From: Octopus vulgaris
Lineage: Eukaryota
Reading direction: 5' to 3'
Assembly (NCBI GenBank): GCA_951406725.2
Contig: OX597830.1
Span: 46,562,001-46,626,000, forward strand
Length of the DNA: 64,000 nucleotides
Below are positions 14,935 through 57,862 of the stretch, piece by piece. A program made the position numbers and the translations under genes. The notes under the pieces were generated by a model. That model saw only the letters and a program-made list of their open reading frames with translations. It was not told the origin of the DNA and made no database searches. The first letter of the stretch is position 1; every line of letters starts with the position of its first letter.

Positions 14935-17900
14935 TTTTTTTGTTTCTGAAACTATAAAGCTCTCATTCCTTAATGATTTTTCGACCGCTTTTCAATTTGT
15001 TCTCCGTAAATGTTCAAACCTTAATTGCATTCAGTGTCGACTCAACCGTTTTTTTATGGCATCGACACACAATACCAGTAATATGCTGGGGGTTGATTCA
15101 ATCGGAAATCTCTGCCTTGTTTGAATTTGTTACGCCTGGGAAAGAAAGACTAATTCTTGTCTTATTTGTTTAGAATAAAGTTTATAGCGACACAAATAGG
15201 AAATGTGTCCACCACTTGATTTCTTCTATTCTTCGAGTGGTTGGAGCCATTCCATTTGGTTTGTTATTTGACTCTTGGGAAAGGCATGAATGTTGTCTAA
15301 TATCGTTTTATTTCTCTTATAAATCAGAGGTTTTATGCAGTAAAGCAGAATAATAGATAAGTGTCGGTTAAGCCATATTCCAACTTTAGTTTTTGCTTCT
15401 GTGGTTGGAGACATTTCATATGGAGAGACTTGCAACTTGTCTCTTTTTTTCCTTCTTCCTTTTCTCATTCATTGTTTCTTATAAACCAAGATACCAGCTT
15501 GCCACGTTTCCTTTTGTATTAAATAGAAGAACGGGTCAGACTTTAAAATAGAAGGAAATTGAAATGTAACGTTCGTAAACAAAAGCGGAACTTGAAAATG
15601 TAGAGCGATAGCTGTTGAGATAGTCACGTCCAATCTTGGTGGCTGTCTCCCGTGAAAAGAGTCCTTATTATTGTTGTCTCTTGGAGGTGAAGCAAAAATT
15701 TATGCTGAGGTGAGCTTATGACCTGGTTTCAATTACCAGAGAAAAATAAAAGAAAAACATCAATGTCACAACACCATCGTTCCGCTGTTGCAAAGTCAAA
15801 CCGTTTCGATATTATTTACTTTACCTTCCAACCATCGTTCTTCAAGTCGATAACAATAGATACCCGTTATATATTTATGTACTTATGATGCAGGGTTCAA
15901 CCGACTGCCCCCTCCCTCACCAATGGTCTTCTAATGTTAGAAATCAGTGTGATGAGTTGGCAGAAGCAGTGAGTCATCCTCATCATTTAGCGTCCGTTTT
16001 CCATGCTGGCATGGGTTGGACGGCTTGACTGGGATTGCACAGGCTCCAGTCTTTTGGCTGAGTTTTTACAGCTGGATGCCCTTCTTAACATCAACCACTC
16101 CAAAGAGTGTACTGGGTGTCTTTTATGTGTCACTAGCATGGGTGCCTTCTGCGTGTCACCGGCACTGGCCACAGCTATGATTTCACTAAGTTTGATGTGT
16201 CTCCTCAAGAAGAGCAAAATCTCGGTCACTTGTCATTTGCCTCCATGAGGCTCAACATCCGAAGATCATTTATTGCTGAATTAGTTCTACCCCTGATTTA
16301 TTTTTGAAACTTGTTAGGGTCCCTTTCGTCCATCCAAGGTTGATAAAATGGGTAATAAGTCATTGCAGTACACGACAAGCCACGTTCTACAAATTTGTGG
16401 ATTATGTTAATGTAGGATAATAATATTTCTTATTCGGTGCCCTTGAAAGAGTGAAAGACCTCCATTCAGGAATGGTAATATTATCTTTACAACCACAGTG
16501 GAATCATCAAGTTGTCCCGTGTAGATAGAACTTCATGAAGACAAAACTTCAGAGTAATCCATGAGTTCCACACGTCACATATAACGTGTATGATGGTAAT
16601 CTCTTGTAGTCCAAGATAGACGGTTCTGCAATATCTTGCTGAAGCACCTGCACGAATGATTTGTTTATAGCGATCGCATGCATGCGCTGCTGTATATTAT
16701 TAGCTCAGTTTGTCCATCGACGTTGCTCGAACATGTCTGGTGTTGAAGTGATTTGCAGAACAGTATGAGCTGGAGTGTTTTACTAAAGAACACAACATAG
16801 CACCACCCAGACCAGGGATTGAAACCCCACTCATGAGTGCAACACTACATAACATGGATATATATGGCTGCAAATTGGTCAAGCTGTTAGAGCAATGGAT
16901 AAATTGCCTTGTGGTAGTCATTCTCACATCCTTTGTTCTGAGTTCAAGTTGTGCTGGGGTCAAGTTTTTCATCGTTTCAGTGTCAATAGGGTGGGGTATA
17001 TTCCCCCCTCTCCCCTCTCCCCCTGGAATTGGCTGTCATTAAATCAGTCCTTGAAAGCGAGGGGTTCTGCTGCCAGGTTTCAAGATGCCCATGACATGCC
17101 AGATGTCTGTTCCCCAGTGACTTGATCAGGAGTTGATCTCCCAATGGAAATCATATGACATACAGTCTACAGCTCATTTAGTTTATCAGATTATTTTGGT
17201 CTGCTCAAAGCCGGAGGGAGAGGTTATTCTAATCTGAGTTAGTTTAGTTGCAATACCCTAATCAGGGCTCAGTGAACAGACCTACAGTATGTAAGTTGCC
17301 AGGTGAATGTTTGAGAGCAACTCATAGGTTATCCGGATTGAATATATGTAGTGGAGGATGTGCGAGATAATATACTAGTTGTTGCATCCTAGCTTTTAGT
17401 GTATTTTAGATTTTTTACTGCAATTCTGAGAAATCAATGAATTTTTCAGTCAAGTTATATTGTGAACTTTTGGCTCTTGAGTTGCTCTTCTAACTTTCTC
17501 TTGGTTCACAATAAAATAGCACATATACCAGAGTATTGAGTTCTCTTTCTTGTATTTGTTTTACCAAACCTATATACATTGTGTGTGTGTGTGTATGTAC
17601 ACACACACATACACATATATGTGTATCATCATCATGGGTTGGACGGTTCAACTGGGGTCTGTGAAGCCGGAAGGCTTCATCAGGCCCAGTCAGATCTGGC
17701 AGTGTTTCTACGGCTGGATGCCCTTCCTAACGCCAACCACTCCGTGAGTATAGTGGGTGCTTTTTACGTGCCACCCGCACATGTGCCAGACAGAGCTGGC
17801 AAACGGCCATGAACGGATGGTGCTTTTACATGCCACCGGCACGGGGGCCAGGCGAGGCTGGCAGCGGACACGAACGGATGGTGCTTTTACGTGCCACCGG

Positions 17901-20900
17901 CACGGAGGCCAGACGGGGCGGCGCCGGCAACGACCACGATTGGATGGTTCGCTTAACCACAGCTGCAATTTCCACTGATGTTGATCAACCTCAATTTTGG
18001 TTCTGCTTTCTGATATCTGATTTGATTTGGTTTGATTTTGATTTTGACTGTTCTCACTGGTCTTGCCGGGTCTTCTCACGCACAGCATACTTCCATAGGT
18101 CTCGGTCTCTAGTCATTTCCTTGGTAAGACCTAAAGTTCGAAGGTCGTGCTTCACCACCTCGTCCCAGGTTTTCCTGGGTCTACCTCTTCCACAGGTCCC
18201 CTCAACTGCCAGGGTGTGGCACTTTTTCACACACCTATCTTCATCCATTCTCGCCACATGACCATACCAGCGCAATCGTCTCTCTTGCACACAACAACTG
18301 ATGCTTCTTAGGTCCAACTTTTCTCTCAAGGTACTTACACTCTGTCGACTATGAACACTGACATTACACATCTAACGGAGCATACTATCTTCATTTCTTG
18401 CGAACTTACGCAAATCCTCAGCAGTCACAGCCCAAGTTTCACTACCATGTAGCATGGCTGTACGTACACGTGCATCATACAGTCTGCGTTTTACTTTGAG
18501 CGAGAGGCCTTTTGTCACCAGCAGGGGTAAGAGCTCTCTAAACTTTGCCCAAGCTATTCTTACTCTAGCAGTTACACTTTCAGCACACCCGCCCCCGCTA
18601 CTGACTTGGTCACCTAGGTAGCGGAAGCTATCAACTACTTCTAGTTTTTCTCCCTGAAACGTGATAGAAGTTGGTCTCTGCATATTTTCAGAGTTTATTG
18701 CTCCTGAGCATCTGCCACAGATAAAAACTATTTTCCTAGTTAGTCTTCCTTTGACATTACTACATCTCTTATGTGTCCATAGCTTACATTTGGTGCATCT
18801 TATAGAGTTTCTACCTACGCCTTTTCTACAGATCAAGCAAGGCCATCTACCTGAAGGCGTTTGTGATTGGTCTACCTTCCTACTTATTAGGACTTTGGTT
18901 TTGGCTAGGTTGATTCTAAGGCCCTTTGATTCTAAACCTTGCTTCTACACCTGAAACTTCTCCTCCAGTTCTGATAGAGACTCAGCAATTAGAGCAAGGT
19001 CATCAGCATAGAGGAGCTCCCAGGGGCATCCTGTCTTGAATTCCTCCGTTATTGCCTGGAGGACTATGATAAATAGGAGGGGACTGAGGACTGAACCTTG
19101 GTGGACCCCAACCTCTACCCTGAATTCTTCACTGTACTCGATGCCAACCCTCACCTTACTAGCAGCGTCTCTGTACATGGCTTGTACAGCTCTCACTAAC
19201 CATTCATCTATCCCTAGTTTCCTCATTGACCACCAGATAAGGGATCGGGGGACCCTGTCGAAGGCTTTCTCCATATCGACAAAAGCCAGGTATAGGGGCT
19301 TGTCTTTGGCTAGGTATTTCTCCTGCAGCTGTCTTACCAGGAAAATAGCATCAGTAGTACTTTTCCCTGGCACGAACCCAAACTGCATCTGATCTAAGCT
19401 AACTCTCTCTCTAATTAGTTGGGCTATAACCCTCTCCATAACCTTCATTACCTGATCTAGCAGCTTGATACCCCTGTAGTTATTTGTATCTAGGGCGTCA
19501 CCTTTACCTTTGTAGCAGTTGACTATTATGCTGCTACACCAGTCATTGGGAATGACTCCTTCGTGTATCACCTGGTTAACTATACAGGTGACTAGGCTAT
19601 AGCCGACACTACCAGATATTTTGAGCATCTCTGCAGTAATTCCTGATGGGCCTGGGGTTTTCCCTGTTTTCATGCTTGTAATTGGGTTGGCAACTAAGTT
19701 CCCGCCGGTTTTTAAAATTTAAATTTTTTAAAAGGTTTAATAAAAAATAACAACTAATTAATCAATAATGTATTTTTGTTTACAACTTCTTCCCAACTTT
19801 CAACAAGATTTTCAATACCTCATTGGTAGAAATCACTTGATTTCGACTCGAAAAATTGATCCAACCAAGCTCTCAATTCTGGATCAGTATTGAACGAAAC
19901 TCCACGCATAGCACTTGATCGAAAGAGATTGAAAGAGATAGAAATCTGTTGGTGCCAAATCAGGAGAGTATGGCAGGTGTGGCAGCACTTCCCAGCCTTG
20001 CATTTGAATGGCTTCCTTAGTCATATTGGCGATATGAGGGCGGGCGTTGTCATGCAGCAGAAGAACTCCATGCTGCCGATTAGGTCTTTTCTCCTGATTA
20101 GCTGTGTTGAGTCGTTCCATCTGTTGAACATAGAGTTCCGCGTTGACCGTTTGGTTCCATTCATGCAATTTGTAATGGATAATCCTTTCCCAATCCCACC
20201 ATATGCACAACATTGTTTTACGCGGTTGAAGATCTTGTTTCATGTGCAGTGTCACTTGTTTACCGGAGATAAGCCATTCCTTAAGCTGCTTCATATTGAT
20301 GTACAGACACCATTTTACGTTGTCAGTAACGATTCGGTAAAGAAATCATTGCTTGTGTCCATGAGTTGAGCGGTGACAAACAAGCAAACCAGCAGAGATT
20401 GTGGCTTGTTGATTTTTGTTGTTGTCACTTAAAGCATGCGAAACCCATGCTCCATACTTCTGAACCTTTCCCATTAAGTGAAGATGCTTCTCTATAGCAG
20501 TGTGGGAGCATTCCATTTTCTCTGCCAGTTCCCTTGTCGTTTGACGAGAATTTTCGTGCAAAAGTTGGTTCAATTGCTCTTCATTGAACTCAACTGGACG
20601 GCCAGAATGAGGTGCGTCTTTGAGGTCAAAATTTCCCTTTTTGAACTTGATGTACCAATCATGAGCAGTTCTTTCAGCTATGGCACCCTCCCCATACACA
20701 GCACAAATGTCATGAGCAGCTTTTGCGGCCTTAGAACCTTGATTAAAAGCAAAAAGAAGGGGGTGTCGAAAATGCTCTTTTTTCTAAACTTGACATTCCA
20801 TTTTAATGATCTGAAAATAAACAAAATTTAACCAAAATTAACTAGAAAATAAACAAAATAGATTCCAAAATTTAAAAATGCAATAAATTCCAAAATTATA

Positions 20901-22382: not shown

Positions 22383-25107
22383 GGTGGAGAGAGAGAGAGT
22401 GAGTTTCTTTTGAGAATCTTTATTTGTGATGCACATTTTGAAGTTTGTTACTGCTATGTTATGGTACTTTAAATTAAGAATATTGATGTAGCAGAATGAA
22501 AATGTGGATACAGTTCAAAGCTAGCTTAATGGTAGAAATTTCTTGTGATTGGGTATTGAACCTTTGAAGCAGCAAAGACCATTAAATTTCATTATTAGAT
22601 CTGTTCTGTCTCCAAAGCGTAGGACATGGCATTTGCTTGTGCCATCATCATCATCATCATCATCGTTTAGCGTCCGCTTTCCATGCTAGCATGGGTTGGA
22701 CGGTTCAACTGGGGTCTGGGAAGCCAAAAGGCTGCACCAGGCCCAGTCTGATCTGGCAATGTTTCTACGGCTGGATGCCCTTCCTAACGCCATGTTCTTT
22801 GTAATAATGTGTATTATTAACTCAAAGATGTAGAGTTTCATGCAGCTAAGAAATAAAGAAAAATTATGCTCTACTTTATGTTTGCGGTTCTATTTCTCCA
22901 GTTTGTAGCACCAAGTCTTTTAATAATGTGTAGCAATCCTCATCTTTGTTGCTCTTTAGACATAGAATTCATAGAATAAAACCAATGATTTTTTAATACC
23001 AGAATGCAAAGGAGACCTACTGAGTCAAGTACATCAACATCGAAATCAAATCAATTCACAATCAAATGGAAATTGTAGCTGTGGTCTTCGTGCTGGTGGC
23101 ATGTAAAAAGCTCCATCCGAACGTGGTCAATGCCAGCACTGCCTTGGCTGACTTCCGTGCCGGTGGCACGTAAAAAGTACCATCCGATTGTGGTCGATGC
23201 CAGCCCCCTCTAGACCCTGTGCTGGTGGCACATAATAAAGCACCCAGTGTACTCTCAGAGTGGTTGGCTTTAAGGAGGGCATCCAGCTGTAGAAAGACTT
23301 CCAGAGCAGACTGGAGCCTGGTGCAGCCTCCTGGCTTCCCAGACCCCAGTCAAACTGTCCAACCCATGCCAGCATGGAAAATGGACGTTAAATGATGATG
23401 ATGATGAGCAATGTTGGAAATTTTAAACTTCAGTGTTTGTATTGTTAATATAGTTTATTTTTGGGGGGCAGATAATGGTTGAATGTTGGATTTAATGCTT
23501 CACAATTGTAAGAATTATCCCCTAAGTACTCAGTTCAAACCCAGCTAGGTTCGGCTCAAATGCTAGAAATATACTATCTATCTATCTAGAGCAGGTAAAA
23601 TTCCTGAGATCCATGGACGAGTTCTCTCCAGCTGTCTTTGTCCCTCATCATCGTTGCCATGTCCTGTGCCTCCCAGAGACCAGTGTCTGTTCTTAGGGCA
23701 TCAACACATGTCATCCTCAGTCTCCCTCTTCTAGTGTGTCCGTGTAGGGGCTCCCACGGGAGCACTGAGTGCAGTATCAACTCTGAATGACGGTGAGCAT
23801 GTCCAGCTAACCTCAGTATCCTTTGTGTTATTTTCAAGCTAACTTTTGGGAGGCTTCCACATGGCTCTGAGTTCTTCATCCTCAATGTACACTGATTAAT
23901 GCTCAGAGCCATCCTCAGCATTCTCTTGTAGCACCAATCCACCATCTGAGTGAGTTTTTTGGTCAGTGTCCAAGTCTCACACCTGTACAACAGCACAGAC
24001 TCCACTGCAGACTGTGTCTACTTAACTTTATGGATCTTCCTCGACACATTTTCTACTTATCGAAAGATATAAGGAAGTGTGGTCTGCAAAAGGTTAGAGA
24101 TTAATGCATGGAATCCATAAGTGATCCATTCATTTAAATGGATTCATATTTATAATCTTTGAAGTTTTATTTTTAATTTATTTCTTGTATGTTTTTTTTT
24201 TTCATCCAGGTGGGGAAAGGCCCAAACCAACATGAAGAGATCCAGCTGGGCCAGTTATATGCCATACTTGTTGAACCTAAAATGGCAGCTAAGGTAAAGA
24301 GTTTTTGCTTTAAAAATAATTTGCTTGGTGATTTCTGATTCAACTGTTTCCTGTCCTGCAGGTACTTTATTGTTCTTGGTTTAGCATCCAGCACGAACCC
24401 GGTTGAGCAATGGTGAAGGCACACAGCTATGGCTGTCCCTTCTGTTCTTCAGACATGGTGTATTTGTGGTTTCATTATTGTAATATGTGAAGGTGCATGG
24501 CTTAGTGGTTAGGGGCATTCGGCTCATGATCGAAAGGTTGTGAGTTCAATTCCCAGCAGCACATTGTGTCCTTCAGCAAGACACTTTATTTCATGTTGCT
24601 CCAGTCCACCTAGCTGGCAAAAATGAGTTGTACCAGTAATTCAATGGGCCAGCCTTGTTACATCTTGCATCATGTGTTAAGGGTTTATGTGTCTGTGGAG
24701 TACTCAGTCATGTGCACGTTAATTTCATGGTGTCGATTTCTTTGACTAACACCCTTTAAGGCGGTGCTCCAGCATGACCACAGTCAGATAACTGAAATAA
24801 AGTAAAAAGAATAAAAGAACATATATATGTACATATGTATATATATATACTTTATTTAAAGCAGCAGAAAATTCAACAAAATCTGTTACTCTGAGTTTCT
24901 CGTTGCCGTTCATCAGACAGTTTTTGCTAGAATGGAACCGATATATCTGTTCCATTCTAGCAAAAACTGTCTGATGAACGTAACGAGAAACTCAGAGTAA
25001 CAGATTTTGTTGAATTTTCTGCTGCTTTAAATAAAGCATATTACTCTACCCCTGGTATTTGAGTACTCTTTTTTCCACCTTGTTTCACATTTATGTGTTT
25101 ACTCCGG

Positions 25108-25144
<37 letters not shown>

Positions 25145-28100
25145 GTGTGTGTGTGTGTATATATATATATGTATATGCCTTTCCCTTGGATAACATCAGT
25201 GATGGTGAAAGGGGAGGCTGGAATGCATGGGCAACTGCTGGTCTTCCACAAACAACCTTGCCCCGTCTTGTGCTTTGGACGGTAACTTTCTAGGTGCAAC
25301 CCCATGGTCATTCATGACCAAAAGGGGGTTTTGCCCCTCTTTACCCTGATATGTATATTTCATATATGTATGTGTATTTTTTGCAGATGTACCGTGACAT
25401 GACATTAGTCAGCAGGGATGGGATGGTGCTTGTCCAAGGTTTCCTTGGTAAAATCATTCATGACAAATGGCTAAAAATACTTCAACCGGTTAAAGTACAG
25501 GTAATTGCCTCCTCCTCTTCTCTTTTCTCTTTTCTTCTTCTTCTTCTTCTTCTCTTTTCTTTTCTTCTCTTTTCTTCTTCTTCTTCTTCTTCTTCTTCTT
25601 CTTCTTCTCTTTTCTTCTTCTTTTCTTCTTCTTCTTTTCTTCTTCTTCTTCTTCTTCTTCTTCTTCTTCTTCTCTTCTTCTTCTTCTTCTTCTTCTTCTT
25701 CTTCTTCTTCTTCTTCTTCTTCTTCTTCTTCTTCTTCTTCTTCTTCTTCTTCTTCTTCTTCTTCTTCTTCTTCTTCTTCTTCTTCTTCTTCTTCTTCTTC
25801 TTCTTCTTCTTCTTCTTCTTCTTCTTCTTCTTCTTCTTCTTCTTCTGCTGCTGCTGCTGCTGGATTAACTTCTTCTTTCGTTTCTGTCTGGTATTGGAAT
25901 AAATGAACGTAGGTTGGCAATGGTTGGGGTAGGTGGTGTGTCAGCTTCATATTAAGGGATGAGGGGATTACTGTAAGAGAGTTGGGGGGTGGAACGAGTT
26001 ACTGCAGAGGGATCTGCGTTGCTACTGGGAAAAGGAGCAGGGTGATGGTGGTGGGGAGACAAGCAGCAGGATTAGTAAAGATGATAAAGTTTCTGGGTTG
26101 GGTAGGGAGAGAGGACAAGGGGTAGGCATAATGCAGAAGGGGAGGGAGTTTCAGTGAATAGGGAACCCAGAATATAGCTCTTCCAGAACTCAGTTTTGCT
26201 TGGGAGTGCAAGTCTTTTTCACCAGAAATCCTGGCCCTTTGATATATAGATATGCAATCAGTTCTGGAGTTAGATGCTTCACTAATCCATTGAAGATAGT
26301 AAATTAGTAGGAATGTAGTGAGATGATTAAAAATAAAGAAATGATAAATGAAGGTACAATAATCTTGTGGGACTTCTTTATTTTGTAAAGTATTGTTGCA
26401 TAACCAGCCAATTCAGAAAGTATCCTTGGATTGTAGGGTGACATGCTGTACTTGATCAGACCAATTGAGTCAAGTACATCAACATCAAATGAAATAAAAT
26501 CACAATCGAATGGAAATTGTAGTTGTATTCCCTGTGCCAGTGGCACATAAAAAGCACCATCTGAACGTGGTCAATGCCAGTCCCCTCACCCTGACTGGCT
26601 TCTGTGCCTGTGGCACGTAAAAAGCACCAGCCAAATGCGGCCGATGCCAGCGCCACCTTGACTGGCTCCCATCCCAATGGCATGTAAAAAGCACCATCTG
26701 ATCGTGGTTGATGCTAGCCCGCTCTGGCCCCTGTGCCGGTGGCACTTAAAAAGCACCCACTACACTCTCGGAGTGGTTGGTATTAGGAAGGGCATCCAGC
26801 TGTAAAAACTTTGCCAGATCAGACTGCACCAGCCTGGTGCAGCCTCCTGGCTTTCTGGGTCCCAGTCGAACTGTCCAACCCATGCCAGCATGATGATGAT
26901 GATGATGATAATTAGCTTGTTTATTTTTTTTAATTATTTTATTTGTGTTGTTTATTATGATCTTTGCACAGATGTGGTTCCATAACAAATGAGGCTTATC
27001 CGAGGGGGATTGTTGTCAGTTGGAAACTATTATGATGATTTATTCCTTAACACTTGTTTGTTTATGACAATTGCATATTCTTTTGTTCTCAGATTTTATG
27101 GCTGATGAGGGAGTTTGTGAAGAATGCAGTTGTTGGATCTGATGGCACATGTTTCGCATTAATTCGGCAGATAGCTGGTCAGTTTTCTCTCATTTACCTT
27201 TAATTCTTATCATTCACTGCAACATTTACCTACACTGATTTTTTTTTTTTTAGTTTATTCTTTTCATTTTTATTCTTATAATTATTACTTTTTCATTAAC
27301 AGACCCCCCCCCCCCCCCCAAGAAAATATTTTGTTTTGCTAAAAGATTGTATTGCTGCATTTAAATATTTGTATTCTTATTTTTCTTTTCTTTTCTTTTT
27401 GCTCATTCACCTCTCAGTCTCTCTCTTATTATTCTTACTCTACTCATGTATTCTCTCTCTCTCTCTCTCTTAAACACTTCTTTCCCACTTTTTTTTTTCA
27501 TTTGAATCTCTGATTCTCTCTCTCTCTCCCTGTTATTTATTTGCTGTCTCTCACCCCCCCATCTCTCCCCTATTCATTACCCTGTCTTTTCCTAGCTTGA
27601 TGCCTCTTTATCTCTTTATCTCTCTCCCTCCCTTTCATTGTGTCTTTCTCTCTTATTAACTAGTTTATTCTCACAAGCTATCACTCCATTTTTCTTTCTT
27701 CTCTTCTCTCCCAATTTTAAATATTCTTTAATAACTGAATGGAAGACAACTTATTCAGTGCTTACGAATTCATATTCTGGTTCTGCCATCTGTTTATAGA
27801 ATGTCCCATATTTCCAGGATGGCATTGGTTGGAGGTGGTTCTGCATTTCTTTTACAGTTATCAGAGTTTTTACAACCTGATATCACTTTTTCCAATTTTC
27901 TGAAGACACAAGATGAAAAGGGTGTAGGGGCTAATATACTGCAGGATCTTCGGGTATAATTTATAGAAATAACAAAATTTGTTATTCTTAAGTTTGTTTA
28001 TTATTTTTCTTCTGTTTGTTTTAAGGTGGAGATGTTAGTCCAAAGAATTTGTGGCTTGCTGAACAAATGTTAGACTTACTCTCTGAAAACCGGTAAGAAT

Positions 28101-29762: not shown

Positions 29763-32700
29763 TCTTCCTCCCAGTTAGAACATCTGTCAGTTGATGGTAA
29801 GATCATTTCAGGTGATCTGGTACCTATTCTTGGCAGCTAGGTAAATTGGGGTGAAATAGAATAAAATGTTCTGTCCAGAAATACAACAAGACATAGCTAG
29901 CAATAAATGTGAACTCCTGATCCATGAGAAGGTAGCTGAATACCTTATTCATTCAGTAATCTCACCTCCATGTGCTGCTGCTGCTGCTCTTGTTTAACCC
30001 AGAACAACTCTATGACCAAATGTGGGATTAGCCTATTTTTTATTTATACTTACTGTATCTAGTCTTAAATTCTCCAGCTTGTCCTTCCTCTTAAAGATGG
30101 TGGGGGTGTAATTTGAAAGAGCTAACCCTTATGCTTTTTCCTTGCATTCGATTTCACCCACAAGTTTAGATCAACCTGAGATTGTGATACAAAATAATTG
30201 CTCCAACATGTCATGCATAATTGTGAAGTGAATTTCTGAATTGCTTGACTATGTTTGACCCTTTGATATTCCCTGTCTGTTTCATTTCTTTGTTTTTCAG
30301 TTTATTGACTGTGTTAATATAATAGGACGTGATTTGGCCAGGGTGTTGCAGAATGTGGCCAGAATTCCTGAATTTGAAAAGTTGTGGCGTGATATAATGT
30401 ACAACCCAACTTCATTAAATCCCAATTTTACAGGTAAAAAAAAAATCTTTTTCTCCCATCCATTCTGACTTCTCTCTACCTGCTGCTGTATTGTAACTAA
30501 TAAAAGTTGTTGAACCAAGGATTGGATAGGGTGAGTGGGTAGGTAAGTTTGCAAAGGGGTGGGAGTGAGGTGGAGAGGAAACAATGTAGTGAGTCGACAG
30601 AAAAGAAAGGGTGGAAGTTGTTAGGGGGATATGTCGTGGGGAAAGAGATTCAAGAGGGACACATTGTGTGCAAGCAGGTTTGTGAGGGTGCAAAGGGAAG
30701 TAGGGGGAAAGGAAATGCAGTGAGTGATGAACTTAGGTAGTGGGGACAAGCAACTAGGCTCTATCTGGGGACGAGCGACTAGACTCTGTCTGGGGACGAG
30801 CGACTAGGCTCTGTCTGGGGATGAGCGACTAGGCTCTGTCTGGGGATGAGCGACTAGGCTCTGTCTGGGGACGAGCGACTAGGCTCTGTCTGGGGACGAG
30901 CGACTAGGCTCTATCCCACTCCGCCAGATATTTTAAGCATCTTCACTTTAATTCTTGATGGGCTTTCTCAGTTTTTATGTCCTTAATTGCTTTATCTTTC
31001 ATGATGCTGTCAACTTGGCTAGCTGGTCCCTTTGTGGGGTCCACATTAGGAAGACTCTCCTTTTCCCTTGCCTTCTTTGTATTTTGCTGTTCTTCATGGT
31101 GATACTTCCAAGCCTGTTTCTCTTTCCTTTTTTTCTTTCTAAACTAATTACAGTTAGAAAACATTCCCCGTTTTATATAAGGTCTTATTTCTTGTTTGAT
31201 GCATAAATTTATAGAACTTTATAAAATTGCTTTATTATGTTAAAAATTTTGATTGTCTAAGATTTAGTTCCATAGTTAAGTGTAATGCTTGAACAGATGT
31301 AGCAGACATAATAAAACTGTAGAAAATAATTCTGCTGCTGAAATAATATGTTTATGCAGTAGCAGCATGATAAAGTGACACAGGAAATGTGTCAAGTCCA
31401 ACAGGAAACGGTGTTTCCTAGGGCTAAATAACAGTAGCATTCTTCCCTTTCATGAGACTGTCACATTAAGTTGACGACACACTTTAATTCTGCCATTGTT
31501 ACACACATCTTCTTTGGTGGTTGAGTTTATTTTAAGTTTTATTTACCTCTCTTTCTTTGGCAGATGGTATTTCCAACAAAAAACAAAACAGACAACTTAT
31601 TTTACTTTAGATCTCTGTATGCCATTAATGTTTTTCTCTCTCCATGTTATGCCATTAATGTTTTTCTCTCTCCATGTTATAGGTATTGTACAGTTGTTGC
31701 AAGCTCGATCCTCCAGACGTTTGTTAATGAGTCGTCTCACTCCTGACATGGAAAACAAATTGATGTTTTTAACAACCAAGGTGATGTCTAGTTTTTCACA
31801 CGTCTTAAATTCTTTGTCTTCTAACAAACTATAGTTAATCACAAAACCTTTATAATTAAAGAGCGAATTGTTCCCTGAATGAATTCCCGTTGTCTACAAA
31901 CAATAGGATTGGATCTTCCAAGTCTTTGTGGTCCCCAGGTGTAAATAAACTCTTACAAGTGCAAGCATGGCTGAGTGAGGTGACCAAAGTTCCGTCGACC
32001 ACTAATGGGTTTGATTCTGACACATGGCATCATGGCTGTGTCTTTTACCTTTGTTTCAGGTTGAGCTCTCCTGCCTACCCTTGTGAGTGAAATCGGGGTA
32101 GATGGGAACTGGAAGCCTGTTAAATAGACTTTGTAATTCAAAGAGTCAGCTTTGTGATGCCCAGTGCCATGCTGTTTCTGCTCGAGAATTACATTAAGGA
32201 AGCACATCTCTGAAGAATTCATCTACTTACGCCGCAATACGATAAGTAAGTAGTTGGATTGATGGAATAACTGGGGTGCTCAGTGTTGAGACTAATAGAA
32301 GTTCCGTGACTATAAACTCTGTACAAGTCTGGTGACTGTGCAGACTGGATTGGTGAGGATAATTAAGTGACAAAGCTTAGTTTAGTTCAACAGACAAGAA
32401 GTATAGTCACATACGACGGTTGTTTATTACTTATTTTCATAATGCACAACACCACCATTGATAACATTCTTAAGAGTTAAAGCCCTCATATGAGAACCAG
32501 AGCACGATATTTAACTCCCCTCGATCCCATTCTGTCCTGTTCTTATCCTACTGCTAGCTCTTTGGAAAGACTGGTTTCTTAAAAACTTACCAGTGCAGCT
32601 CTTCCTGCAATAGACTGGTCAGTGTTGACCTTTGACCTTTTAGTACCTTGAAAACTAGATGATGCTTTAGTATATTGCAACACTTAACAGTGAGGCAGCA

Positions 32701-35700: not shown

Positions 35701-37867
35701 CTTGATCAAATGCTAAAGCAATGCAAAGTGCATTGTGACCAGTGATGTATAACAACATCCAACAATCTGGTCAGTCACTTGATATGTATTGAAGTTGAAA
35801 TATAAAAAGAAGAAATTAGTCTGTTTTTCTTTATTTTCTATTGTAATGGCTTTACTGTCTTCTCTTCTTGTAATGCTTTTGTGATAAAGTATTGACTATG
35901 TTCTAAATGAAGATACTGCTATAAGGAATTACCAGAGAATTATCAGTTCAACCACAGACGAGGCTTTTAGCAGTCTGGTATTTTGGGTTGAGTTATAGCA
36001 ATTGATGGCTGAATATTTCTTATTCTCCAAACAGACAATTCACAAATGATGGCATGGCATAAAATATGTCTATTATACAATCTATTAAAATATGAATTCA
36101 TATTATTAACAAAACAGTGATGTTAAGTTTCCTTGTTTTACACAACTTTTAATTTTATTTCTGTTTCTTTACAGTATCTTTCCACACCTGAAAGCCAGTC
36201 TCTACGCTGTGATTTGATACGATATATTTGTGCTGTGTTTCATCCGACTAATGAGCTCCTTTGTTCAGAGATTATACCTCGCTGGGCTGTGATTGGTTGG
36301 CTACTCACGACATGCACAGTAAGCTGCACTTATTATTATCAGTTGCTTTGTGTACTTTGAAATAGAAAACGTTCTCCTGTTAATTGATATATAACTCTTA
36401 ATGTTAGAAATCACTATAAAAATGCGGCCTTTTGCTAAGATTAAAGTGATGTGTGTATGTGGATATATATATATATATAAATGAACGCATGTGTCTGTGA
36501 TATATCTAATGTGCATGTGTATTTTTTTATGAATCTTGGACAATAACCTCAACTCAAGATTGAAGTCAACACAAACCATGGGAGGGAAATTGAGTTGATG
36601 AAAATTGCATGGAAACTCATCACATTGTCTCTGAAGACACCAGCTCAAGTTGCTGCACAAGGGATGGAATTGAACCCTGAAATATGTGGTTGCAAAGTGA
36701 ACCCTTTAACCACACCACCATACATATATAGATCTCATCATCATCATCATCATTTTAACAGCCACTTTTCCATACTTGCATGGGTCCAGTGTGGCCTTGC
36801 AGGTTACCAGTTTGTGTTGTCCAACCCATGCTAGCATGGAAATCAGACATTAAATGATGATGATGATGTTTTCAATGACCAGATGCCCTTCCTGTCACCA
36901 ACCCTTAGCTATTTCCAAACAAGGGAATATCCCCCCTCCGGCCCAGACAATGTTTTCCATAGAAAATGCGAAATAAACAACACCACTTGTGTGATGGTGA
37001 TGCTCATTTACATCTGTCACCTGATGTCTTAAAAAAATTGAGGTAATTCTTATAGAAGAAGGGTGTTCCATAACTCTTCTTGCTGTTAACTTTTCTTGGT
37101 GAATGTGTTGAAGAAGTTTATCCAAGAAATCTAAAGGTCACCATGTACAAATCTTTCCTTTTGTGTTATATATATACACACACGCGCACACACATTATTT
37201 ACATTATTTACATTTGACAAATATTTGTCCTCATTTTGTTTGTTGTTAACACAACGTTTCGGCTGATATACCTTCCAGCCTTCATCAGGTGTCTTGGGGA
37301 AATTTCGAACCTGGGTTCTCATTCCTAAGGTATTTTTCAATGTTGTTGTTGTTGCTATTATTATTATTATTATTATGCCCCGAGCATATGGCGTAGTTGT
37401 TAAGAGCGCGGGCTACTAAACCCAAGATTCCGAGTTCGATTCCAAGCAGTGACCTGAATGATGATGACAACAACAACATTGAAAAATACCTTAGGAATGA
37501 GAACCCAGGTTCGAAATTTTCCCCAAGACACCTGAAGAAGACTGGAGGGTATATCAGCTGCAACGTTGTGTTAACAACAAACAATTTGAGGACAAATATC
37601 TGTCAAATGTAAATAATGTACATAATTCCTCATCTCTTAAATATAGAATTGTATCATTTATATATATACATATTTATTTACGTGTTCTAGTTTTACTTTA
37701 AAAGATTTTTGCTAACGAGTTGGTCTCCAAATCAGACACAGCAGTATCCTTGGCATTTAGACAACATCAGTTAGGTTGTCATGTATGTATCACGAGTGTG
37801 TGTATGTATATGTACATACTAGAGGGTGAACTTCTGGAAAGTGGTTTCATGTATCTAAATGCATGTG

Positions 37868-44817: not shown

Positions 44818-47800
44818 TACATACACAAACCTACATACATATTTTATGATGTTAGTGTTGTTGAAAATGGAAGATATTCTTGAGGCACAACAGTTCATAA
44901 AAAGAAACTGTTCCCTAACTTTAGATTCTGAAGCTTTACATGGTTGTGAGATATGATGGCTAGTTTCTTGCATATTGAGGAAGAGAAAGGAAGAAGCAGG
45001 AATGTCAGATCTCAAAAGTACTTCACACTGATTGGCAATGAATACCAGTGGCAATAAGTTGTATGTAAACCTGCTCAACTCACGAGAATATGGGAAGACA
45101 TTTGAAAATGAAAATTCCTAAAGGATCTCAGATTTGTTCCCCATAATTAAATGAAACACTTCTATAAATACAGTCAATGTCCATTGCTTTAATATCCTCA
45201 ACTAATATGGAATCATTCTATTCCTAGTTTAAGGAATCAATTTGAATTAAAGAATGTAGTGTGATTTTTGAGTCTACAGAAAAATTCAGTTTGTATTTGG
45301 AATCTCCTTGGGTTCCACTCCACCCGCATCACTGCTGCTAAGAAAGACGTTAACATTGCAGTTTTCATCCATTTATAAAAATGATGAAGTTTCACAATTT
45401 TGTTTGAAATTTTAAGACTTGGCAAGCATTAGGATCTCTTGGTGGACTTAGACCTTGGATTGGAGTTGTTTCCAAATAAAGAAACTGATTTCTTTCACTT
45501 ACGATGCCATTGATGTCATTGAGAAATGCTTGTATCGGGTAACACTTCTGTGCATCTTTTCCTCTCCATGCCTCCATAATTCTATAATTTGTGATTGGGG
45601 TGCCTCTGTTGATGGGGGAGGCTTGGTTCATCATGGGTTTGCGTGAAGCATGACCACACAACTGGACCAAATGATGAATTGGATGCAAATGCCCTTAGAA
45701 TATCTGTACATCTCAAGAAATATTTGGCTGCTGTCGTCAGTGATGTGCATAAATGGACATCCAATATAAGATTTTGAATCTTTATTGCCTGGCAAATACA
45801 AACCTCATTAAATATAGCAGGAAACACTCTTTTGGAACTTATTAAAGCAAATCCCCCCCCACTTATTGTTGAAGATGAAATTGGATTTCAAACTCCTAAA
45901 ATGAGATTAGACTGGTTTAATGATTAAAGAATCGTAATTAATGTATATAATAAGAGTAGATGTCCCAGGAAGAATTCTTCTATGTAACAGGAAATTCTTA
46001 CAAAAATACAAACCCTATTAACTATAGTGATTGATCTGGTTTACCCACCAATTGAAATCAAATGTATAATCTTCATTCAAAAGATTCACTGATTTTCCAT
46101 TTTAATCTTACATAGATAATCCAACAGAGTTGAACGCTGTCAAGATTAGTAAATCTCTGATGACAGTCAAAAAGCTGCCTGTATGCAACAGGGTCACAAA
46201 CCAGGCAGAATGTGTTCCTTAAAATAAAGCAGGGCTAGAAGTGGCTTTGCTTTTGCAGTTGGGTTAAAGAAAGAAGCTCTTCTATCTATGAGCTATAGTT
46301 ACTTCCCGGACGTTATTCTGCAAGTCATTGCTGTAATTTAATTTCTTTTCGTTTTTTTTAATATCCCCAATGGCTGGAATGAGGAAGAGGTAGAGGACAT
46401 TGAGTGACTGAGTTTCTGTTTCCATATTTATGCCGTAACAACATTGCATTTTTCTCTCTTCATATTTTCAGAGCTCTGTTGGGATTGACCTAAATACAAA
46501 GCTGAATATATTCTTATCTAATTACCACAGGATTATCTCATTTCCTTCCATTATATATTTGCGTAAAAGTGTTGAATCTGAGATGACGTATGCTGTTCAG
46601 CATTGCCAAATGGTAATAGGAAGTCGAAAGAGTGGAATAAATGTTCTGCTTTAAGAAAGAAGAGAAAGGCAAATGCTCCAAGTTGAATACTTTGTGGGAG
46701 AGAGAGAGAGAGGAAATGGTGAAAGGGTATTTTTTTGAGAGAGAGAGAGAGATAGAGAGGAAATGGTGAAAGGGTATTTTTTTCAATGGGAATTATTGAG
46801 GAGGAGGAGAAAGAAGCACGAGTGCCATAATTACTTTTATTGAATATATTTCTCAGATTTTTATCTGTAATTAAGAATTCACTATATTTTAGAATCTTGT
46901 ATTTGTTTTAATTCAATCCAGCCTACATCAATTTGTGTGGGTGTGGGTGTGTTATATCATCATCATCATCATTTAGCGTCCGTTTTCCATGCTAGCATGG
47001 GTTGGACGGTTTAACTGGGGTCTGTGAAGCCGGAAGGCTTCATCAGGCCCAGTCAGTTTTGGCAGTGTTTCTACGGCTGGATGCCCTTCCTAATGCCAAC
47101 CATTCCGTGAGTGTAGTGGATGCTTTTTACGTGCCACCTGCACAGGTGCCAGACAGAGCTGGCAAACGGCCACGAATGGATGGTGTTTTTACGTGCCACC
47201 GGCACGGAGGCCAGGCGAGGCTGGCAACGGACACGAACGGATGGTGCTTTTATATCATCATCATTATTATTTTTATATCTGTTTTCCACTCTGGTATGTG
47301 TTGATTGTATCAACAGCATCCAGTGAGAGTCAGAGGACTACATCCTGCTCCAGTGTCTCAGTTTTAGCATGCTTTCTATGGCCAGATGCCCTTCATAACA
47401 CCAACCACTTCACAGAGTGTACGAGGTGCCATTTTTGTGGCACCAGTCCCAGTGAGGCCACCTTGTAGTTTGTTGGAGTCAAGTGACAAGGTGACTCTTG
47501 CAAGAGTGAAGAAGAGCCCCTCACCCCTGAACTGAGCAGGAGAATAGGAGGGATGGCGGACGTCCATGCCTACTTCATGTTTTACTTGAGTGGATGGGCC
47601 AGGCTGGAGTGGGGCCGAGAAGTGAGGTAAATATAATGGTGACAGAGTGTTAGTACATGCTCTCATGGTGATGTACTGAATGAATGGAACATAGATACAG
47701 AAGAATCAGGAAAGTGTGTGGGGTGGTGGTGGTGGTGGTGATGAGGGATAGGGTAAAGTTGCAAAAGTGGGAGTAGAGTATGTGTTTAGGGGATGAAGTT

Positions 47801-54200: not shown

Positions 54201-56188
54201 GCGTGCTAACGTTTCTGCCAGCTCGCCGCCTTCTTAATATATATCTCACCCCCCGTCTCCCTCACCACAGCCTTTATCTTGCAATTCATTGCACTCTCTG
54301 CCCTACTTGTCTCAGTTCTCTGTTCAGTGCCAAAGCTCAGGAATTCAATTCCAGAATAATATCATGGCATTTATAGTGCCAGCAGCTCAAACCACCTTTG
54401 GTAGTTAAACGAGGTACACCTGGACAACTGAACAAAATTATCATTATATGATGATAATGATAGTACCATTTTTAGGGCGATGAATATTTTTTCATCTTTT
54501 GATGATATTTTTGTAAGATTTCATCATCATCATCATCATCATTTAACGCCCGCTTTCCATGCTAGCATGGGTTGGACGGTTCAACTGGGGTCTGGGGAGC
54601 CCGAAAGCTGCACCAGTCCAGTCAGATCTGGCAGTGTTTCTACAGCTGGATGCCCTTCCTAACGCCAACCACTCCGAGAGTGTAGTGGGTGATTTTATGT
54701 GCCACCGACACAGGTGCCAGATGAGGCTGGCAAACGGCCACGCTCGGATGGTGTTTTTTATGTGCCACCGACACAGGTGCCAGACGAGGCTGGCAGACGG
54801 CCACGCTCGGATGGTGTTTTTATGTGCCACCGACACAGGTGCCAGATGAGACTGGCAAAACGGCCACGATCGGATGGTGCTTGTTACGTGCCCACAGCAC
54901 GGAGGCCAGTCGATGCGGTACTGGCTACGGCCACGTTCGGATGGTTTTCTTGTGTGCCACGTGCCACCGGCACTGGTACCACAAGGATACAAATTCCATT
55001 GATGTTCATCTATTTTGATTTGTATATATATATATATATATATATATGGATATTATCTCCAATGATATATTGGAAATATGAAAACAAAATTGTAACAAAA
55101 CAGAAAATATAAATATATCATGTAAATGCTAGAGTCTTCTGAATCACTGTATACATATAAATGTGTTTCCTTTTTCCCCTCTCTCTTTCTCTCTGTCTAT
55201 CTATCTGTCTCTCTCTATATCTGTCTGTCTGTCTATTTATATGAGACATGTTCCAAATTTTGTAGTTCATTATAATATGATGACAGGATATTTCTATTAT
55301 TTCGCAGTTTGAGTGAAAACTTTGGAACACTCCAATGGTGTGTGTACATATATATATATATATATGTACACACACACATACAAGGGGCTATTGAAAAGTT
55401 CCTGGCTTTAAGGATATCGTGAAAAGCCTGGTTGGAGGCCCAACTTTCTGGAGGTCTTTTACAGGTCTTAGAAAAACTGAATGACCACTGCAATAAGTGT
55501 GTGAATCTGAGAGGGGAATATTTTGAATAAAATCACAATTAAGTGATCCTCCTGTATTTTCCTTTACCCAAAGCCAGGGACTAGCGCTCCCTAGATATAT
55601 GCACACAGGCATACATGTGTGTGTATTGAATGAGAGTGTCCACTGTTATTCTTTCTCAATTTCTAGTTTTTCTTCAGGTAATATATTAATTTTCATTTGA
55701 AAAACTATTTTTAGCCATGCTCTATAAATTACTCTTGTTTTTCTGATATATCTAATCATCTTACCTTTGAATTAAAACAAACACACACACACAACACACA
55801 CAAAGTAGCTTTGAAGTATAATGATGTGGTGTTAACGACTCAAGTTAATTTCAATGACTTGGGCAGGCCTCTAAAGGCTGCTGGTACGGCCCATTCCTCC
55901 ACACTAAACCAAGAAATGAAAATAGATAATGAAGGAAACCCCCCCCCAAAAAAAAACCCATTGATTTATGTTTAAATCTTTGCCTTGTACTTCTTCTCTG
56001 CAAGACTTGTTCCAGTTTGTGGTTGATTGTAGGAAAAGCATTGAAATGTAAAAATTAGTTTTGTAAAAAAAAAAAAAGCAAAACTGAAAATCTCATTCCT
56101 GCAAACATGGAAAGTAGATGCGTGCTGGTGTGTGTGTGGAATGCTTCAAGTGAACAAAGACCACAAGCTTGTTTTGGTTTCTGGTCAC

Positions 56189-56247
<59 letters not shown>

Positions 56248-57862
56248 ACACACAGACACACACACACACACACACACACATTGCTAGTATGAAAATCACA
56301 ACACTCTATTTCTGAATATACACAGCCTTGTCTTTAGTCAAAAGACATGTCTGTCTGCCTGTCTGTCTCTCTCTCTCTCTCTCTGTGTACAACAATCTGT
56401 CTGTGTATGCCTTGTGCATATGTTTTCACTTACCTACTTCATGTTCTTGTATTTCAGAGCCAGCAATTCTTGTCATGTACCATTCCATGCGGCCACACCC
56501 TGTTATCACAGCAACTCTTTTAGATTTTATGTGTCGGGTAATTCTTTTTCTTTCTCTCTTTGATGGTAGAGGAGGACAGAATCTTTTTTTGTCAAGAGTA
56601 AAGGTTATATATAAGTGATTGAATCAACTCCATCATAGCTATTTATTTATTTGTTTGTTTGTTTGTTTGTTTGTTTCCACTTCCAGTAGAGGAAGATAGA
56701 AGACAAAGTGTAGAGACATAACTAGAATCTGAGTTAAAATATTGCCACAGTTGGCTTTGCTTTCTGAGTTTAGTTTGGTTATTAAAATAAAAGGCAGCAA
56801 TACACAGGAGTGATTGGATCCCAAATAAAAACTTGTCATTTGCCAATAAAACAAAATAAAAAAAAATGATCACCTGGTTGTGCTTGCTTGGTTAAAAATG
56901 GTCACTAACATTGATGGTCAGTGAGACTATAAATGTTAGCAGTAAAACACTTTAGGATGACCTTGGCTATGATTTGAAAGATTTGGCTGTCCAGTATTGA
57001 TGTGAACATTGCCTTTGGTCAGGAGATATATCTCTATTGATGAGATGGCACATTCCCCATGCTGCTTGTCATGGCGACACCCATAGCCTTAAGCTTGATG
57101 ACTATGAGACTAAATGTTAGCAGTAAAACACTTTAGGATGACCTTGGCTATGATTTCAAAGATTTGGCTGTCCAGTATTGATGTGAACATTGCCTTTGGT
57201 CAGGAGATATATCTCTATTGATGAGATGGTACATTCCCCATGCTGCTTGTCATGGCGACACCCGTAGCCTTAAGCTTGATGACTATGAGACTAAATGTTA
57301 GCAGTAAAACACTTTAGGATGACCTTGGCTATGATTTGAAAGATTTGGCTGTCCAGTATTGATGTGAACATTGCCTTTGGTCAGCAGATATATCTCTATT
57401 GATGAGATGGCACATTCCCCATGCTGCTTGTCATGGCGACACCCGTAGCCTTAAGCTTGGTGACTATTGGTTGCTATTTCGTGCTGAATGGCATCCCTTG
57501 TCTGGTTCCAAGATGGTTTATTTCCACATTTGCTACCATTCTCTTATCTGCTCTCTGGGCAAGAATCCCTTCTCCCATTCTATCCTGTAAAGAAGAAATC
57601 AACAGAGATTTTTTCAATTTTGGTATAGACTTCAATTGATCCCAAATGCGTGATTGACATATTTATTTGACCAATGCTGAAAGATGACTGACGAAACAAA
57701 TGGCAGGGTTTAAACCTGGAACATGGAAGCACATAACTAAAGTTTCTTCTATCTCACTCCCTGCATCATATTTTGTTGGGTCTGCTCTATCACATGGCAT
57801 CTTGTTGGATGCTGCGCCATTTCTATCATTTCACTCTTATTGTAGTAGTAGTGGTAGTAGTA

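Follow-up and report, generated by a model that had tools for sequence, protein, structure and literature searches.

A Penelope-like element of Octopus vulgaris with a tRNA-derived head in its pseudo-LTR and abundant SINE-like solo copies

Penelope-like elements (PLEs) of the Penelope/Poseidon type, such as PAc of Anolis (PMC11167929) and Pen2a_Av of Adineta (PMC3846280), encode one open reading frame (ORF) with a reverse transcriptase (RT) plus, at its C-terminus, a GIY-YIG-type domain, and carry a pseudo-long terminal repeat (pLTR) that holds the ORF start and a minimal hammerhead, an inverted 5' pLTR and a tail of ~30 nt at one end. The same plan was found in a repeat family of Octopus vulgaris that is represented at positions 37194 to 37656 of a 64,000-nt stretch of contig OX597830.1 (46,562,001 to 46,626,000; hereafter the window). 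Its ORF has a length of ~835 aa versus 842 aa in Pen2a_Av (PMC3846280), and its short target-site duplications are mostly 7-14 bp, versus 9-10 bp published for Penelope/Poseidon PLEs. Unlike PAc and Pen2a_Av, the octopus pLTR contains a tRNA-derived head with A and B boxes followed by an (AAT)n linker, and the ratio of its solo short copies to coding ones is about 12:1; the published Penelope/Poseidon promoters in the sources consulted are TATA/initiator (Inr)-like or similar to those of long interspersed elements (LINEs), unlike the octopus head. Published systems are compared here and below through parts of the cited sources.

Short interspersed elements (SINEs) of the tRNA-derived SINE2 class share with the octopus family a tRNA head with A and B boxes, a length of about 280 nt, tens of thousands of copies and a 3' part held in common with an autonomous retroelement. 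Unlike SINE2, the octopus partner is a PLE rather than a LINE, the whole sequence including the head belongs to that partner, and the 3' ends lie at two internal sites in place of an A-rich tail. A further relative in design is the hammerhead SINE-like repeat of Schistosoma, which we take to be the one named Sm-alpha. That repeat likewise places an RNA polymerase III (Pol III) promoter beside a type-I hammerhead, but it is tandem, is liberated by cleavage and has no named autonomous partner in the relevant part of PMC6765202, a source that also covers pLTR promoters, whereas the octopus copies are dispersed inverted pairs with a minimal hammerhead and an identified partner.

A Pol III promoter derived from a small RNA is likewise present in the terminal repeats of the TRIMp3 elements Helenus, Ajax and Cassandra (Kojima 2024, PMC10886601), which are non-autonomous LTR elements with a primer-binding site and polypurine tract (PBS/PPT), whereas the octopus family moves by a PLE mechanism and its coding element itself bears the head. 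For the autonomous partners of TRIMp3, the same source argues that Pol II is required and that a shared LTR is improbable. The sources consulted pair SINEs with LINEs, and all terminal-repeat Pol III promoters described in them belong to non-coding elements (PMC10886601). Like the octopus short copies, animal non-LTR retrozymes (bioRxiv 10.64898/2026.07.22.740005) and non-autonomous Chlamys elements such as MRC1 (PMC8557442) are non-coding, derived from pLTRs and thought to be moved by PLEs, but they form head-to-tail tandem arrays, while the octopus family is head-to-head and tRNA-headed. The head-to-tail hammerhead units that define non-LTR retrozymes are not the arrangement of the octopus family, and a term search of the retrozyme preprint gave no occurrence of the word tRNA.

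Coding partner of the tRNA-headed repeat

The head, the (AAT)n linker, the hammerhead-bearing body and the 28-nt tail together form, with near certainty, the pLTR of an autonomous PLE in the same genome. At locus L183 a GIY-YIG-like coding sequence lies immediately 5' of the head, and the coding 3' end runs on into the head at 27/29 loci selected by GIY-YIG (seed excluded), the two exceptions breaking off at or just before it; all 20 lower-scoring coding copies also carry the head after the ORF end. At the other side of the pLTR, body and tail continue into the ORF N-terminus at 12 of the 20 loci selected by that N-terminus. The order is ORF end-head-linker-body-ORF at L263 and pLTR-ORF-pLTR at L241. 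In the resulting unit the tRNA head follows the ORF stop after 28 nt, the (AAT)n linker comes next, and a further 22 nt lead to the ATG, hammerhead and tail, which run into the next ORF. An autonomous PLE sharing its terminus with the repeat, for which the original prediction had proposed to look, therefore exists, as coding copies end in the head and the body opens the ORF. The accompanying idea of a head that only the SINE possessed, joined to a 3' end borrowed from a PLE, had to be given up, since the head sits in the coding element's own pLTR in 27/29 and 20/20 coding copies.

The majority sequence of 66 fragments, with a depth of only 4-7 fragments in the N-terminal third, contains a single 835-aa frame that runs from the body ATG to a stop 28 nt before tRNA position +1. 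This frame carries the RT motifs PADKG and YVDD and is 62-75% identical to 18 unnamed ENA proteins of the RVT_1/PF26215 type (P0003-P0020); P0003, with 75% identity, matches RVT_1 at E 1e-11, and two of three tested relatives gave an RVT_1 match. A local GIY-YIG profile built from 22 Pfam-positive matches placed the domain at residues 727-772 with a weak E of 2e-4 (1e-6 for P0003), and the C-x-C..H..H residues of the CCHH motif could be aligned in the C-terminus, while the GIY-YIG model of Pfam (PF01541) gave no match at the C-terminus of the family, so that the assignment of this domain is only moderately supported. Residues 600-725 hold only three scattered Cys, compared with a Cys cluster in a 781-aa family of the same genome, and a linker without the Neptune/Nematis Cys cluster points to the Penelope/Poseidon clade. 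An intact frame was found in none of 150 protein matches, the longest being 569 aa, and with ~6% decay the family looks extinct.

A PDB search returned only weak matches to bacterial-type RTs, and a protein search with the 52-aa body frame returned only two octopus gene models, both beginning in the repeat. These models, P0001 (a 368-aa uncharacterised protein) and P0002 (dystrobrevin beta isoform X1), come from Octopus sinensis and O. bimaculoides and take their first ~35 residues from the ORF start of the repeat, either through exonisation or as an artefact of gene prediction.

Two other PLE families were rejected as partners. The 781-aa family with a Cys-rich linker, the main yield of the Pfam GIY-YIG search of the genome, shares the body at 0/30 loci, and 20 longer stretches showed no shared terminus. 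An older family, suggested as partner by a tail-only match in L099, was set aside because the 29 additional copies proved to have a hammerhead-like motif and termini of their own; one of these copies holds a separately inserted copy of the tRNA-headed element. The older family (L111-L140) shows ~75% identity between copies, with its own 3' end as well. A young PLE family (L093:268-3968, L099:281-3981, L092, L091) retains intact 781-aa RT/GIY-YIG frames and has a long stop-free frame upstream, which overlaps in another frame and is 479 aa long in two of the copies; a single ORF is what descriptions of PLEs give. Its pLTR of ~250 nt ends in (TA)n, and a hammerhead pattern search found none there. 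A metagenome scan gave 9 loci. In L272, the best relative (31%), the same minimal hammerhead lies ~120 nt beyond the ORF; A and B boxes were not found in L272, which is too AT-rich to serve as a control for T runs.

Genomic linkage and insertion signature

In the 2.8-Gb genome, 3,864 sites match a 29-nt tail motif exactly (reversed control, 0), and the first 70 of them, all on contig C1, served as a sample of loci chosen independently of the head. The association of head and body proposed in the original prediction was borne out in both directions, with a same-strand head at 30/43 whole-body loci of this sample and a same-strand body within 450 nt at 23/29 head-selected loci. The remaining 13 whole-body loci and 6 head-selected loci, which lack the respective partner, would suit a tRNA-SINE nested by chance beside a hammerhead repeat, or a SINE mobilised by a LINE. 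Such an origin has virtually no probability, as it is refuted by the coding copies, in which order and spacing are fixed, and by the one-tailed inverted pairs that lie inside one duplication; the 3' ends, moreover, share neither a poly(A) nor a repeat tail and fall at two fixed internal positions.

The hammerhead core is the majority state of the family, as the original prediction had expected, and the motif is intact in 34 of 68 copies, with position 7 varying between T and A. A minimal hammerhead in the pLTR, a hallmark of endonuclease-bearing (EN+) PLEs, is thus present as a sequence motif. Other repeats are often lodged in the (AAT)n linker or in a short AATGTA repeat before the tail (L158, L162, L174, L182, L192 and others), and short and coding-linked copies alike have often lost internal stretches of the head or body.

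Insertion is of the PLE type, with pLTRs, partial tandems, an inverted 5' copy and a one-sided tail. An inverted body lies upstream at 44/70 tail-selected loci, where same-strand body repeats are rare and head-to-head pairs dominate, so that of the tandem or inverted arrays envisaged beforehand the inverted ones prevail. The 3' ends form two clusters ~28 nt apart (body 144-151 and 176-181), and head-to-head pairs combine one long and one short 3' end in 35/38 tail-selected, 14/16 head-selected and 6/7 GIY-selected cases; the same combination was seen in 20 of the 23 pairs chosen without the tail criterion (P = 2.4e-4). Around the whole pair, a duplication of at least 7 bp was found in 24/38 pairs versus 2.7% of shuffled flank pairs, and because the duplication encloses the whole pair, the inverted pair represents one insertion. 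The target-site duplications are mostly 7-14 bp long. These features of pairs, tail and duplication match descriptions of PLEs in PMC8557442, PMC3846280 and PMC11167929, the last of which links the tail with a pair of internal sites of RT start and shows that both target strands are nicked and extended.

The window locus and its neighbouring repeats

In the window copy (Table 1) two arms meet head-to-head at about 37374/37375. The minus arm (37194-37352) is 93.75% identical to the plus arm (37467-37626) across 160 nt and lacks its final ~28 nt, which agrees with the inverted body copy described earlier as missing the last ~30 nt. The ORF start of the plus arm carries a 1-nt insertion, and 15 nt of CA repeat separate the possible left duplication copy from the element end.

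Table 1. Features of the tRNA-headed pLTR pair in the window
Feature	Position	Strand	Remark
Possible left copy of target-site duplication, uncertain	37166..37178	+	13 nt, low complexity; matches 37658-37670
Inverted pLTR arm	37194..37352	-	whole body without the tail (short 3' end); ATG of the ORF start at 37322
Minimal type-I hammerhead	37249..37292	-	core intact
(AAT)n/(AAC)n linker of inverted arm	37353..37374	-	5'-truncated in window copy
Plus-arm 5' edge	37375..37381	+	TGCCC.., about -7 to -1 of tRNA +1
tRNA-derived head	37382..37458	+	A box 37389-37399 and B box 37434-37443; of the tRNAs sampled, nearest to Arg
(ATG)/(AAC) microsatellite linker	37459..37474	+	(AAT)n of variable length in the family
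pLTR body	37475..37626	+	22-nt leader, then PLE ORF start (ATG 37497)
Decayed hammerhead in plus-arm body	37528-37571	+
PLE tail (3' extension, within ORF)	37627..37656	+	~28-30 nt, on one arm only

The A box TGGCGTAGTTG, from 37389, and the B box GTTCGATTCC, from 37434, occupy tRNA positions 8 and 53 counted from 37382, and a loop CTACTAA lies at tRNA positions 32-38. Three A- and B-box pairs were found in the window against a mean of 0 in 30 shuffles; the other two heads, at 24498 and 35552 (+), belong to different tRNA-type repeats. The poor cloverleaf noted in the original prediction was reproduced (fold z = +1.7), and neither ARAGORN nor Rfam called a tRNA in the head. Aligned to 30 distinct genomic tRNAs of seven sampled isotypes, the head scored z 2.0-7.5 across all 30, and the best match among these isotypes was Arg, with 49-50 identities over ~75 nt (z 7.4-7.5).

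The minus-strand hammerhead has the full core that had been described for it and reads acac-CUGAUGA-a-GGCUG..CAGCC-GAA-ACGU-U-gugu (minimum free energy z -2.3). An A is inserted between 9 and 10.1, G10.1 pairs with C11.1, stem III is the palindrome ACGU and position 17 is a U, in agreement with the traits of minimal hammerheads in PMC4209133. A U at position 17 would predict slow cleavage. A hammerhead descriptor matched once in the window versus a mean of 0 in shuffles, while an Rfam scan of the window did not recognise a hammerhead. In the plus arm the core is broken (GAA to GCA) and stem II is weakened. As the arms lie on opposite strands, a cis hammerhead dimer could not form within one transcript, and cleavage as a dimer would require either units in tandem or a second molecule.

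Elsewhere in the window, short arrays of related 61-70-nt units are dispersed in both orientations (17756-17919, 26531-26720, 47124-47252 and 54693-54892), and there are a 181-nt unit repeated three times at 98% (56930-57467), a 25-nt unit repeated seven times (30741-30912) and a TCT tract of 115 copies (25516-25846).

Short copies, their probable transcription and their significance

Exact 20-mers occur 1,013 times for the ORF end and 5,148 times for the head, 67 nt downstream, which at exact-match rates of 17/34 and 14/67, respectively, extrapolates from these small samples to about 2,000 versus 25,000 copies and to the short-copy excess given above. Among the 70 loci, 34 of the 44 arms that reach the A box end within 20 nt of tRNA +1, and 10 continue 29-578 nt further. 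Read by eye, most true 5' ends lie at -7 to +1, several of them abutting unrelated sequence; apparent ends at -14 to -20 were dismissed as palindrome artefacts.

The divergence of short copies (6.1%, n=33) equals that of coding-linked ones (6.5%, n=34; P 0.42), and no diagnostic site separates the two sets, the lowest P being 0.017 at one CpG, uncorrected over ~48 tests. The short form thus behaves like a SINE, but its equal divergence and lack of diagnostic sites leave a separate lineage unsupported. Compared with SINE2, it has a tRNA-derived head with A and B boxes; the head is not, however, absent from the partner (27/29 and 20/20 coding copies carry it) nor the mark of a lineage of its own, and the 3' part is the start of a PLE ORF and not a LINE-derived end with a poly(A) or repeat tail. 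The original prediction of a non-autonomous Pol III element using PLE machinery therefore holds for PLE-type mobilisation and fails for a stand-alone SINE, while its Pol III component is suggested by the head. An origin as an independent tRNA-SINE, which acquired the 3' end of a PLE and spread from masters of its own while the coding element gained the head secondarily, would explain the roughly 12-fold excess of copies with SINE anatomy, and an intact short copy, combining a promoter-like head with RT start sites, could act as such a master. This course of events is improbable, as no head-less coding subfamily exists among 29 + 20 coding loci and no position separates the 33 short from the 34 coding-linked copies.

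The short copies probably stem from Pol III transcripts driven by the tRNA-Arg-like A/B-box head and reinserted by the PLE protein. Pol III would start about 6-7 nt before tRNA +1 and transcribe head, linker and body; the RT-GIY-YIG protein would nick both target strands, and two cDNAs would be primed, one from each of the internal start sites ~28 nt apart, as priming at two such sites has been shown in vitro for the anole element PAc (PMC11167929). The two cDNA ends may then join by microhomology, often at the palindrome of the RNA 5' end, to give the inverted pair. The step in 5' ends near tRNA +1 fits a Pol III start from the head, and the edge at 37375..37381, which is the modal 5' end of short copies and one half of a short palindrome, is a candidate start site.

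Several observations count against this account. The 5' edge of the short copies coincides with that short palindrome, and rotifer Penelope elements have palindromes at pLTR 5' ends and inverted junctions (PMC3846280), TATA/Inr-like promoter motifs being described for one of them in the same source. A same-strand upstream head is kept at only 2/20 N-terminus-selected loci, neither of which has a full-length copy starting exactly at the proposed site. One RNA-seq run on L263 was uninformative, the two strands being covered to the same depth and the starts showing no pile-up. To these may be added the missing tRNA call and PF01541 match, the sampling of a single contig and the extrapolated copy numbers. 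As an observation of another kind, A>G and T>C differences at L263:395, 512 and 558 were commoner in the RNA run than in contigs labelled as other organisms; they could reflect variants between species, artefacts of alignment or the A-to-I editing of inverted pairs.

It is rather unlikely that all copies are ordinary solo pLTRs from long Pol II transcripts, with the head a passenger captured once in the 3' untranslated region and the short-copy excess arising where RT stopped or folded back at the palindrome or the structured head. The equal age of short and coding-linked copies without diagnostic sites, the many junctions centred on the palindrome, the published Penelope pLTRs with 5' palindromes (PMC3846280) and the Drosophila Penelope promoter, described as like TATA-less LINE promoters (PMC2377424), all accord with it. 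However, the ends lie on the 5' side of the palindrome, meaning that RT had passed through it, and such ends also occur at junctions with unrelated sequence; the A and B boxes survive intact and spaced exactly as in a tRNA, whereas neither the acceptor nor the T stem is intact, and the ORF is without a T4 run.

Beyond Pol III transcription of the short copies, it is tentatively suggested that the autonomous element is itself transcribed by Pol III, the head of the upstream pLTR driving an RNA of ~2.9 kb through a terminator-free ORF. If so, the ORF RNA must be translated without a Pol II cap, and the same promoter in each downstream pLTR would shed SINE-like RNAs. The sense strand of the majority ORF has no run of at least four T, against an expectation of 3.0 under synonymous shuffling (P 0.023) and of 4.5 under base shuffling (P 0.0085), and six long natural copies have 4 T4 runs in 13.3 kb versus 22 in 6.7 kb of four other PLE-type frames of the same genome; T3 and A runs are as expected. 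G4 runs are likewise absent from the majority ORF (0 vs 3.0 expected), which makes the T4 deficit non-specific and a hint only. If the proposal were true, the element would supply its own SINEs and lead straight from PLE to SINE, and a Pol III coding RNA would contradict the expectation in PMC10886601 that autonomous elements need Pol II.

The observation is real, and the family is a PLE with a tRNA-derived head in its pLTR that sheds SINE-like solo copies, within a PLE framework that is itself known. Full-text literature searches, judged mainly from listings and abstracts, showed no tRNA-headed PLE or PLE-mobilised SINE, and the 10 of 17 papers listed for the octopus SINE Twhin were unrelated; as the repeat libraries Dfam, Repbase and SINEBase were outside the scope of these searches, an unremarked database entry may exist. 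The passages and supplement of the O. vulgaris repeat library paper (PMC13282606) contain no mention of a hammerhead, and a term search in the available text of PMC5786205 gave no match.

Since its partner is identified, the family offers a specific example, open to testing, of SINE-like copies mobilised by the machinery of a PLE, and its thousands of dated insertions can be used to test models of PLE integration in which two RT starts and two primed strands yield one duplication. Repeat pipelines may split the family between SINE and Penelope. In the octopus itself, the numerous inverted pairs probably give rise to long double-stranded RNA in transcripts.
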